Origin: Candidatus Methanophagaceae archaeon
GTDB taxonomy: Archaea; Halobacteriota; Syntropharchaeia; Alkanophagales; Methanospirareceae
Reading direction: 5' to 3'
Assembly (NCBI GenBank): GCA_003194435.1
Contig: PQXC01000008.1
Span: forward strand, 19,773-83,772
Length of the DNA stretch: 64,000 nt
The first letter of the stretch is position 1. The number at the start of each line of letters is the position of its first letter. The translations under genes and the position numbers were made by a program. Under the pieces are notes generated by a model that was given only the letters and a program-made list of their open reading frames with translations, did not search any database and had not been told where the DNA came from. Below are positions 2,301-4,640 of this stretch, one piece after another.

Positions 2301-2432
2301 TACTACGAGCAAAATGATTTGGAAGCGCGGGAGGAATTGAAGGAAGTGGAGGAGAGAATTGATAAGATGGTTGCGGGATTGTATGGGATTACGGATAAGG
2401 AGTTGGAGGATGTGAAGAATAATGGAACCTGA
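2301..2432 (+). pseudogene. Methyltransferase C-terminal tail, in frame immediately after the TGA at 2298-2300 (YYEQNDLEAREELKEVEERIDKMVAGLYGITDKELEDVKNNGT*)
   Basis: Same frame as the methyltransferase. Carries the ...LYG(I/L)T.EEL..V... C-terminal motif typical of type I/IIG/PglX methyltransferases. Confidence 0.5.
2322..2416. repeat. Direct repeat copy 1 (methyltransferase tail) flanking the AT-rich cassette; copy 2 is at 4509-4603
   Basis: gaattgaaggaagtggag...attgataagatggttgcgg.attgtatgggattacgg...gagttggaggatgtgaagaa is present at both sites. Confidence 0.8.
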
Positions 2433-3141
2433 GGTTGCAGGAGTTTTAAGCCAGTTCAAATCTATCAAGAAACATGCAAGTCTACTTCGTCAACATATCT
2501 TTTATGATACAAAGGAGGAGTTAGAAAGTCTTGTTGAAGAATTCACGGATGCAAAAATACATTTTGAAAGTATAAGGCACAAACAAAAAATTGACATATA
2601 TCTTCGGAGTATAAAATCAACGGAATGGAAATATAGAACCGATGAACAAAAAGCATTATTAAGAACAATAGACATAGAATGCGATAAAGCTATTGGTGCT
2701 TTAGAAAGCATAGCCACTCCCTTGTCGAAAGATGAATTAAAGAAACTTACACCTATCAGAGAGGAATTGGAAGAGCTATCAGAAGTATTACCGGATATAA
2801 ACTATGAAAGAAATTTAGAAGAAGCAATAAAGGAGTACGAAAAGGGAGATTATCTCGCATCGGCATTAATCTCCGGCCGTGTAATAATTTATGCCTTGGG
2901 TCAAATTCCCGGAGAGTCCGATGAAGAAAAAGTGAAATTTTTGCGAGAAAAAGGGATTATAGAGAAAGGCAGAAAAGATGTTCACGAGTCAATAATAAAA
3001 GCGAGTAGAAGAGCAAGAAATTTCTTCTCTCACGATATTAAAGTGTTTCCAACACCTTCTGAGGCACTTTCATTGTTAGGTGATGCTATTGGGATTTTAG
3101 GAATTGTTAGCAAAGTTTTGAAAGGGGAGGGAAAGTCTTGA
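2422..3141 (+). CDS. Hypothetical protein with a C-terminal HEPN-like RNxxxH motif (ASRRARNFFSHD); first gene of the AT-rich cassette
   Basis: 239-aa ORF. Visibly more AT-rich than its flanks. R-N-x3-H matches the HEPN Rx4-6H signature. Confidence 0.35.
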   Translation: MEPEVAGVLSQFKSIKKHASLLRQHIFYDTKEELESLVEEFTDAKIHFESIRHKQKIDIYLRSIKSTEWKYRTDEQKALLRTIDIECDKAIGALESIATPLSKDELKKLTPIREELEELSEVLPDINYERNLEEAIKEYEKGDYLASALISGRVIIYALGQIPGESDEEKVKFLREKGIIEKGRKDVHESIIKASRRARNFFSHDIKVFPTPSEALSLLGDAIGILGIVSKVLKGEGKS

Positions 3142-3193
3142 AAAGGAAAAACGGTTTGCCAGAAGTGGTGGAAGAGAAAAAAAATAGATTGGA

Positions 3194-3646
3194 ATGAGCG
3201 AAGAAAGAAACAAAGCTGAAGATGTGGAGAGATTGAAGGAAGAATTGAATGAGTGGATAGACCATAGAATTGTGGATAATAACGCCTTTATAAGTTCTCC
3301 TAAGAAAGAAACCCTCTCTTTACTCTTTGCTTTACTTCCCCTCTTGGCTATTTGCGGCTCATGGCTATGGGGCATTCTAAAACAGTATTACATTTATTCT
3401 CTCCATCTTGTATTCATACTCTGGACTGTGGTAGGTATTACGGAGTCAATAGCAAAAAGGAAAGGGACAAAAGAATTTATTAAGGCGCATATAAATTTGA
3501 AAGATGCAGTTTATTTTTCTTTCCGTAATGTGAAAGCAATGGTATTTTCCTTCGATGTGTTATTTATTCTCTGTATTTTTGTGCTTTTGCTTGTTAAAGA
3601 TTTGAGATGGTGGCTATGGGGTGATCGTCACATTAGTATTATATGA
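3194..3646 (+). CDS. Small hypothetical membrane protein (about 3 predicted TM helices)
   Basis: Hydrophobic stretches LLFALLPLLAICGSWLWGIL, LHLVFILWTVVGI, LFILCIFVLLLV. AT-rich. Confidence 0.3.
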   Translation: MSEERNKAEDVERLKEELNEWIDHRIVDNNAFISSPKKETLSLLFALLPLLAICGSWLWGILKQYYIYSLHLVFILWTVVGITESIAKRKGTKEFIKAHINLKDAVYFSFRNVKAMVFSFDVLFILCIFVLLLVKDLRWWLWGDRHISII

Positions 3647-3899
3647 AAAAGCAGTAACAAATACCGCGACAATGGTGGAGGGAGATTATAAAATAGAACT
3701 GAACACTTTTAGGAAAAAAGTACTATCAGGAATTGCAATAGTCCTCATTATAGGCTTAATCGCGGCTTTAGTCTATGTATTCTATAAAACACCCTTAGAA
3801 ATATACTTCATGATTTCAGAAGATCCATCTGGACTTTTTGGAATAATTCTAACCTTATTTGCAATCTTGACAAGTTATGCTCTTTATCAGAATATTTGA
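3621..3899 (+). CDS. Small hypothetical membrane protein (2 TM)
   Basis: GIAIVLIIGLIAALVYVF and GLFGIILTLFAILTSYALY. Overlaps the previous ORF by a few codons (operon-like). Confidence 0.25.
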   Translation: MIVTLVLYEKAVTNTATMVEGDYKIELNTFRKKVLSGIAIVLIIGLIAALVYVFYKTPLEIYFMISEDPSGLFGIILTLFAILTSYALYQNI

Positions 3900-4129
3900 G
3901 TATAAAATTCACAATTGCTGACGTTACCGTACAAAAAAATAAACTTTCCATGCTCAAAATGGAGATTGATAAAATGAACGTTGAAGAACTCGAGAGGGTG
4001 AAGAAAAATTTGCGAAAGTGGCCTTTACCGATAATCGAAAAGTTTTTGTTTTTCAACTACTACGGTTTCATGCCCACGAGATATACTTTTGAGGTAGACG
4101 AGAAAGATGAGAAGTCAAATAGAAATTAG
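3896..4129 (+). CDS. Small hypothetical protein
   Basis: 77-aa ORF in the cassette; no recognisable motif. Confidence 0.2.
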   Translation: MSIKFTIADVTVQKNKLSMLKMEIDKMNVEELERVKKNLRKWPLPIIEKFLFFNYYGFMPTRYTFEVDEKDEKSNRN

Positions 4130-4487
4130 TGCGAAGTTAAAAGTGTTATATGCAATTGGGAGGGGACTCAGGATGATTGTAGTCGGATGGAATAATGGGT
4201 CACCTAATAATAGAACCGGAGCTGGATACGGCGTCCGAATAGTACGCGAAGATAGAGATATGTATTTCCAGAACACGTGGTCTTCTGTGATCATTGAGCT
4301 TGACAATGGAGATTTATTGGATGTTAGGTTATCAGCTTCATTTTGGAGAGGTTGTACTGAACTGCGGAATGTTAAAATAGGAAAATGGATGCTTGAGCAG
4401 GGGCTTGCTCCGTGGCCAAAAGGTGACCCGCCAAAACTCAAATTAGAACCGATAGGGAATAGAAGATTCCGGTTAAGTCGCTTGTAA
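4107..4487 (+). CDS. Hypothetical protein (last ORF of the cassette)
   Basis: 126-aa ORF; ends 10 nt before the second copy of the methyltransferase tail. Confidence 0.3.
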   Translation: MRSQIEISAKLKVLYAIGRGLRMIVVGWNNGSPNNRTGAGYGVRIVREDRDMYFQNTWSSVIIELDNGDLLDVRLSASFWRGCTELRNVKIGKWMLEQGLAPWPKGDPPKLKLEPIGNRRFRLSRL

Positions 4488-4496
4488 CTTCCCAAC

Positions 4497-4640
4497 AATT
4501 TGCAAGCGAGAGAAGAATTGAAGGAAGTGGAGGGGGAAATTGATAAGATGGTTGCGGAATTGTATGGGATTACGGGTGAAGAGTTGGAGGATGTGAAGAA
4601 GACGTTAGGGATTTTGAAAGGCGAGGATGGTGAGCGATAG
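4497..4640 (+). pseudogene. Orphan second copy of the methyltransferase C-terminal tail (LPNNLQAREELKEVEGEIDKMVAELYGITGEELEDVKKTLGILKGEDGER*); no start codon
   Basis: By eye, roughly 90% nucleotide identity to 2322-2416 over about 95 bp. Confidence 0.55.

Follow-up and report, generated by a model that had tools for sequence, protein, structure and literature searches.

A candidate HEPN-type defence protein in a cassette behind an archaeal type IIG restriction–modification gene

Among the central effectors of immunity in prokaryotes are the HEPN RNases, which include Cas13, Csm6, HepT, and RAZR. Described here is a candidate member from an archaeon: the product of the open reading frame (ORF) at positions 2422-3141 in a 64,000-nucleotide stretch of DNA from a Candidatus Methanophagaceae archaeon (contig PQXC01000008.1, positions 19,773 to 83,772 of the forward strand; hereafter the window). 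The ORF lies directly behind a type IIG restriction–modification gene (IIG gene), in a cassette bounded by two copies of that gene's 3' tail, and is followed by a gene for a predicted membrane protein and by a small third gene. The locus is laid out as follows, in window coordinates:

2422-3141, + strand: HEPN-candidate ORF; ATG start, 239 amino acids (aa), all-helical
2422-2781, + strand: N-terminal helical domain of its product, aa 1-120; helices 3-24, 31-55, 73-98, and 103-120 in AlphaFold2 (AF2) models
2782-3141, + strand: C-terminal domain of predicted HEPN fold (DUF4145-like), aa 121-239 plus the stop codon, assigned from AF2 models and Foldseek
3016-3033, + strand: Rx4H motif R199-N-F-F-S-H204, the predicted RNase active site
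60-2300, + strand: IIG gene, methyltransferase/specificity part, truncated by the window start
2301-2433, + strand: tail copy 1, the in-frame IIG 3' tail (YYEQNDLEAREELKEVEERIDKMVAGLYGITDKELEDVKNNGT*); 2317-2419 is the left repeat arm
3194-4129, + strand: partner gene, for a membrane protein of 325-367 aa (when intact) in which six transmembrane helices are predicted
4107-4487, + strand: third cassette gene, for a small soluble protein; likely start at the internal ATG 4173 (MIVVGW...)
4498-4640, + strand: tail copy 2, the displaced original IIG 3' end (QAREELKEVEGEIDKMVAELYGITGEELEDVKKTLGILKGEDGER*); 4498-4600 is the right repeat arm

The cassette and its flanks

The two tails contain a 103-nt direct repeat (2317-2419 and 4498-4600; 89% identical), and the duplicated segment encodes ...AREELKEVEE.IDKMVA.LYGIT..ELEDVK. 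The stop codon of tail copy 1 overlaps the start of ORF 2422-3141, and tail copy 2 has the full native IIG ending, as in a related locus, L003 (such handles denote loci compared with the window). Between the repeat arms lie the three genes of the cassette (2420-4497; 2.1 kb), whose GC content is 36.8%; the IIG gene and the two tails have 45%. The original prediction, made from the DNA letters, had placed the ORF within an inserted cassette, and both the flanking repeat and the difference in base composition bear this out. The window contains no tRNA gene or Rfam element that might serve as an integration site.

ORF 60-2300 is readily recognised as a IIG gene. It matches the PADLOC model REase_MTase_IIG at 2.8e-247 (profile positions 289-1053 of 1100), along with the Pfam families N6_Mtase, Eco57I, and MmeI_Mtase. 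It ends at an in-frame TGA (2298-2300), where all related IIG genes have an Arg codon (CGA or AGG; CGA in L020), and this premature stop removes the last 43 codons.

The membrane-protein gene is broken into three ORFs (3194-3646, 3621-3899, and 3896-4129). The breaks stem from deletions relative to L020, of 17 bp at 3618/3619 and of 1 bp at 3879/3880. The gene is intact in L020, L018, L019, L003, L047, L058, and L084; homology is detected by tblastn in L003, L018, L019, and L020. Searches of Pfam, PADLOC, NCBIfam, and PHROG returned no match for the protein. Both variants are shared by independent metagenome assemblies, the IIG stop codon by L023-L025 and the split membrane gene by L024, and assembly error is therefore rejected as their cause. 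ORF 2422-3141 is intact in L020 and in L023-L025.

The third gene belongs to a family of small proteins (85 clusters) with the conserved sequence ...SFWRGCTELR...IGKWM...; no Pfam domain was found among the 85 homologue clusters. Homologues are about 104 aa long, so translation likely begins at ATG 4173. The gene is intact in the window and frameshifted by a 7-bp duplication in L020. Its full 126-aa ORF is in frame with tail copy 2 and was considered as a carboxyl-terminal relic of a second, different IIG gene; this was rejected, because it belongs to the stand-alone family of about 104 aa.

The ORF family and its C-terminal domain

ORF 2422-3141 is under purifying selection, and so is a real coding gene: the ratio of nonsynonymous to synonymous substitution rates (dN/dS) is 0.11-0.26 in the C-terminal domain and 0.32-0.56 in the N-terminal domain. 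Its homologues form 119 clusters at 90% identity. Clustering at 50% gives 309 family representatives at E<=1e-3 and 152 at E<=1e-30, mostly 230-270 aa long and covered over their full length. Homologues share the opening MEP[DE][VI]AGVL, which supports the assigned start codon. Labelled metagenome-assembled genomes that carry family members come from Methanophagales (anaerobic methanotrophic archaea group 1, ANME-1), Methanosarcinales, and Hadesarchaea, and from bins labelled Bathyarchaeia and Halobacteria. The collections of phages, plasmids, and IMG/VR viral contigs contained no homologue, so that a viral or plasmid origin is unsupported; judged by the collections searched, the family appears to be encoded by hosts only.

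The motif lies within the last 45 residues of the protein, as had been noted from the sequence: ASRRARNFFSHD spans aa 193-204, and R199 and H204 stand 36-41 residues before the carboxyl terminus. By itself the motif is at chance level. In the stop-free stretches of at least 150 aa across the whole window, 21,895 aa in all, the bare pattern R[NQ]xxxH is present two times. Its conservation exceeds chance. In a set of 111 diverse family representatives, whose identity to the window protein is 26-49%, 110 have R199 and 109 have H204, and no other columns of the protein are as well conserved. At position 200, 87 sequences have N, 12 have D, and 5 have H (104/111); in the published definition of the HEPN superfamily, the conserved R is followed by a polar residue, N, D, or H (PMC3710099). 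R153, in helix 2, is R or K in 110/111, and E140 is present in 105/111. The latter lies at the turn between helices 1 and 2, outside the context of the Ex3[KR] acidic residue in helix 2, a typical but optional HEPN feature (PMC3710099).

The full-length AF2 model, built from a 97-sequence alignment, has two domains and ten helices with a mean predicted local distance difference test (pLDDT) score of 89.5; the original description of the protein as helical is correct. The isolated C-terminal domain (aa 119-239) was modelled with pLDDT 88 and a predicted template-modelling score (pTM) of 0.83. Its helices span residues 126-140, 144-159, 185-201, and 212-233, with an insert helix at 167-176; in the published definition of a HEPN domain, four helices form an up-down bundle and an insert separates helix 2 from helix 3 (PMC3710099). 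R199 falls within helix 185-201, and H204 in the loop that follows (202-211).

Foldseek comparison of the C-terminal domain with the Protein Data Bank (PDB) retrieved HEPN-family proteins as 11 of the 12 best matches. The top match is AF_0298 (2hsb; probability 1.00; template-modelling (TM) scores 0.64/0.62; 118 columns). Others are ST0689 (1wol), TM0613 (1o3u), TT1696 (1ufb), HepT (7bxo, 5yep, and 6m6w), and Csm6 (8jbb), with AbiA and AbiV lower in the list. A further match, 1wwp, also at rank 10, is among the HEPN structures named in PMC3710099. The full-length model likewise retrieves HEPN structures.

These results also dispose of the most sceptical explanation, that the motif arose by chance in a generic coiled-coil or helical protein, or that the ORF is spurious. 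The near-chance rate of the bare motif in the window and the failure of the window protein to match any library profile would suit such an explanation. It is refuted by the 119 close and roughly 300 distant homologue clusters, by purifying selection, by R and H as the best-conserved columns, and by the confident HEPN-like fold model. Its probability is negligible.

Profile libraries place the family near DUF4145 (PF13643), a HEPN family in which the R/H motif is about 80% conserved and which is found in restriction–modification operons and in fusions to restriction endonuclease, helicase, and TIR domains (PMC3710099). At E<=5 the Pfam DUF4145 model matches 31 of 97 close relatives, and at E<=0.01 it matches 5 of 111 distant ones. 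One relative, P0118, is 33% identical to the window protein and scores 26.6 bits against a gathering cut-off of 23.1. HEPN_Apea is matched by three relatives. The window protein itself does not match DUF4145 even at E<=5, and the link, as traced by these profile matches, is transitive and holds at the level of the family only. Hidden Markov models (HMMs) of the family (A3) and of its C-terminal domain (A7) gave chance-level matches only against PDB sequences, and a word-indexed search with the C-terminal profile for annotated DUF4145 proteins returned only family members that carry no Pfam label.

In sum, the C-terminal domain is very likely a HEPN domain. The original reading of R-[NQ]-x3-H as a HEPN active-site signature has held up well: the confidently predicted fold and the R/H pair conserved among relatives both agree with the definition in PMC3710099. 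That the protein has RNase activity, which is argued by analogy, is a less secure step, and one that we consider probable.

The N-terminal domain and the recurring module

The C-terminal domain is better conserved than the N-terminal domain in every comparison. In L018, L029, and L035, for example, identity to the window protein is 64-71% in the N-terminal domain and 91-97% in the C-terminal domain (L029, 70% versus 97%; L018, 64% versus 91%), and in L015 the values are 31% and 58%. The N-terminal domain contains a single conserved Cys, C87. Many metagenomic relatives match the C-terminal domain only, and have other amino termini.

The converse arrangement also exists. Two proteins, P0117 and P0119, share only their N-terminal ~110 residues with the ORF family (53-60% identity), and carry a Cap12-like TIR domain (PF10137) where the HEPN domain would sit. 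P0117 is encoded at L003 8001-8792, in an island opened by an orthologous IIG gene with its tail. Also in this island are the membrane protein, GmrSD, an RNase III-like gene, and a protein of 800 aa. The presence of a PF10137 TIR domain behind the shared N-terminal domain marks the latter as a module for coupling to effectors. This natural exchange of HEPN for TIR on the same N-terminal domain makes it a probable sensor, and we infer that it serves as a sensing or regulatory module. Moreover, the sister architecture and the conserved pairing with a membrane protein together point to the product of ORF 2422-3141 as the presumed effector of the cassette.

Comparison with L020 reveals how the N-terminal domain varies. 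The genes flanking the ORF are ~99-100% identical at the two loci, but positions 2490-2870 (the middle of the N-terminal domain) diverge by ~30%, and the first 66 nt of the ORF and part of the C-terminal domain are identical. The synonymous substitution rate (dS) is correspondingly uneven: 0 in codons 1-22, 0.68 in codons 23-118, and 0.36 in codons 119-239. This dS mosaic identifies the divergence between near-identical loci as allele exchange; as far as the sequences tell, the pattern is mosaic through recombination and does not reflect hypermutation. Positive selection on the N-terminal domain was considered and rejected, given dN/dS <1 everywhere and divergence that stems from allele exchange.

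The arrangement of IIG tail, ORF, and membrane protein is itself recurrent. The module occurs directly behind type IIG genes in at least 14 distinct metagenomic loci, where the preceding IIG bodies are 29-100% identical to that of the window. At every one of these loci, the ATG of the ORF either overlaps the end of a tail copy or directly adjoins it.

The same linkage calls up a different role: a toxin in an addiction module that stabilises the cassette or the restriction–modification locus, with the membrane protein or the 104-aa protein as antidote. HEPN RNases are classic toxins, such as HepT with MntA, and the ORF is tightly linked to the membrane gene (gap ~50 nt) in those 14 or more loci. 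Pfam and PADLOC scans, however, turned up neither a nucleotidyltransferase nor any other known antitoxin. Frameshifts disrupt the membrane gene in the window and the small gene in L020, with the HEPN gene intact in both, a state that would be lethal were either product an essential antidote; moreover, many family members are solo genes. The membrane protein is thus not an essential antidote, because its gene is frameshifted here beside an intact ORF and is lacking beside the solo members. An addiction module is quite improbable.

The IIG tails deserve description in their own right. The 3' tail of ~100 nt is 70-100% conserved, compared with 29-100% for the IIG body. Two tail copies are found around other inserts also, the loci with paired tails being the window, L019, L020, L024, L029, L031, L058, and L076. 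In L019 the order is tail, HNH gene, tail, ORF, and membrane gene. In L029 and L031 a different membrane gene (354 aa in L029) stands between the two tails, followed by the ORF and, in L029, by a membrane gene. L076 has a tail, three genes, a tail relic, and an ORF fragment. Stop codons are common in the downstream tail copies, which are taken as relics for that reason. The duplicated tail thus looks like a general site of insertion, and these arrays suggest that cassettes were captured one after another by recombination in it. At L076 5918-6189, at L082 686-963, and in P0352-P0357, a tail relic is joined to the last ~65 residues of the HEPN domain, beyond the motif region; these fragments are probably deletion remnants.

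A conserved protein of 800-810 aa, encoded at L003 5508-7910 and L076 2032-4464, recurs in the IIG-linked islands and has no Pfam match. Its 454-aa neighbour in L076 has no NCBIfam match; a different 454-aa protein, in L018, carries SLFN_AlbA_2.

Proposed function and its meaning

Among characterised defence proteins, a near parallel is RAZR (PD-T7-4), a proven DUF4145 RNase that cleaves single-stranded RNA and requires both R and H for defence (PMC13017515). Both proteins have a C-terminal helical HEPN-type domain with an R...H pair, both are single-polypeptide effectors (putatively so for the window protein), and both have an N-terminal accessory domain, which governs activation in RAZR and may do so in the window protein. 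They differ in several respects. RAZR has an N-terminal Cys4 zinc finger, in place of which the window protein has a helical domain of 120 aa, and the motif spacing is Rx4H in the window protein compared with R146...H154 in RAZR. Although PADLOC covers the PD-T systems, the window protein has no PADLOC match at E<=1. The window family, unlike RAZR, comes from archaea and has a polytopic membrane protein as its partner.

AbiJ-type proteins (PMC3710099) offer a likeness in architecture: a variable N-terminal domain joined to a C-terminal HEPN domain, with the N-terminal domain joined elsewhere to TIR or other effectors. However, the N-terminal domain of the window protein is not AbiJ-NTD by any search done. 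Pfam models for Abi_2/AbiD-F, AbiJ, AbiU2, AbiV, and AbiA-CTD were matched neither by the window protein nor by 208 relatives, and the PADLOC scan of the window protein was likewise empty; the resemblance to AbiA and AbiV is at the level of fold only. The closest solved folds are HepT and the minimal HEPN proteins 2hsb, 1wol, 1o3u, and 1ufb. In HepT an RNxxxH-type motif occupies the same position within the fold as in the window protein, but library scans detect no nucleotidyltransferase domain of the MntA kind in the cassette ORFs or their neighbours. Sequence similarity to HepT and the minimal proteins is 14-21%, and the window protein has an additional N-terminal domain. Finally, the Cap12/Pycsar TIR effectors (PF10137) have the same type of TIR domain that P0117 and P0119 carry behind the shared N-terminal domain. 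The window protein differs from them in being a HEPN rather than a TIR protein, and no CD-NTase or cyclase gene lies nearby.

In the literature, neither the ORF family nor tail-bounded cassettes were found described. The protein is best filed as a new archaeal variant of the HEPN superfamily (ANME/Methanosarcinales-type), with an undescribed N-terminal domain and gene partner. It would work in the manner of a DUF4145/Abi-type effector, an N-terminal domain joined to HEPN, and belongs neither to RAZR nor to HepT/MntA nor to any Abi family of Pfam.

How it might act is drawn from the HEPN superfamily as a whole (PMC3710099) and from the DUF4145 RNase RAZR (PMC13017515). Two HEPN domains would pair to form a composite, metal-independent RNase site, which the N-terminal domain would hold inactive until a virus-derived cue appears. 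The activated enzyme would then cleave cellular RNA, viral RNA, or both, so that translation stops and infection aborts. In this lineage the gene travels with that of the six-transmembrane-helix protein directly behind type IIG 3' tails; the module appears to have been inserted by recombination in the tail, which was thereby duplicated. The membrane protein may cooperate with the HEPN protein as a sensor or as a second effector.

Several caveats apply to the HEPN and effector readings. The window protein has no meaningful match in Pfam, PADLOC, NCBIfam, or PHROGs, and the Foldseek E-values for its C-terminal domain are weak (0.04-1). Of 97 sequences, 25 have Y or F in place of H204, a loss that marks one subclade. 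The membrane-protein partner, one of the grounds for regarding the ORF product as an effector, is broken in this genome. Many HEPN domains are non-catalytic (PMC3710099), and two clades of the family have stable positions among housekeeping genes. One, with the motif intact, lies between DUF5661/methyltransferase genes and adenylosuccinate lyase (L001, L002, L006, and L022). Another lies between major facilitator superfamily (MFS) and hexapeptide transferase genes (L007-L012; MFS only in L014); here H204 is changed to Y or F, and N200 is often D.

These two settings, the loss of H204, and the non-catalytic HEPN domains, along with the persistence of ORF 2422-3141 while neighbouring genes decay, would fit a protein that has the HEPN fold but is no defence nuclease. 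Such a protein would bind RNA or nucleotides in a housekeeping or regulatory role, or would process RNA, and would lie in a variable region here by coincidence. The near-invariance of R and H across the family favours catalysis instead. Moreover, the N-terminal domain has been swapped onto a TIR domain of the NADase type within a defence island, and the gene recurs behind restriction–modification genes at many unrelated loci, in mosaic alleles. On this evidence a housekeeping or regulatory protein is unlikely.

The subclade in which H204 is replaced comprises L007-L012, L014, and L040-L045, near eIF6 and L31e. It possibly represents an inactivated or repurposed HEPN.

The reading that we favour, with some reservation, is a two-domain cytoplasmic HEPN protein acting as a defence RNase of the abortive-infection type and carried in a IIG-tail-linked module. 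Its position, in a foreign cassette at the end of a restriction–modification gene, makes an antiviral RNase the most likely of its possible roles. For a defence role as such, we judge the odds to be about even.

A broader hypothesis, which we advance only tentatively and think rather doubtful, is that IIG tails constitute a homology-driven, integron-like platform on which cassettes are stacked, and that the shared, rapidly diversifying helical N-terminal domain senses infection and drives interchangeable HEPN and TIR effectors. If this were true, ORF 2422-3141 would be the founding member of an archaeal immune module, with the ~100-nt tail duplicated at every insertion. If instead the protein proves inactive, it is one more divergent protein with the HEPN fold.

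To our knowledge, archaeal defence beyond CRISPR and restriction–modification is poorly charted, and we know of no such system established by experiment in uncultured methane-oxidising archaea. The ORF family provides a compact candidate that can be tested, a protein of 239 aa with two obvious point mutants. Moreover, its recurrent insertion behind a duplicated restriction–modification tail suggests a route by which defence genes may be exchanged between strains.
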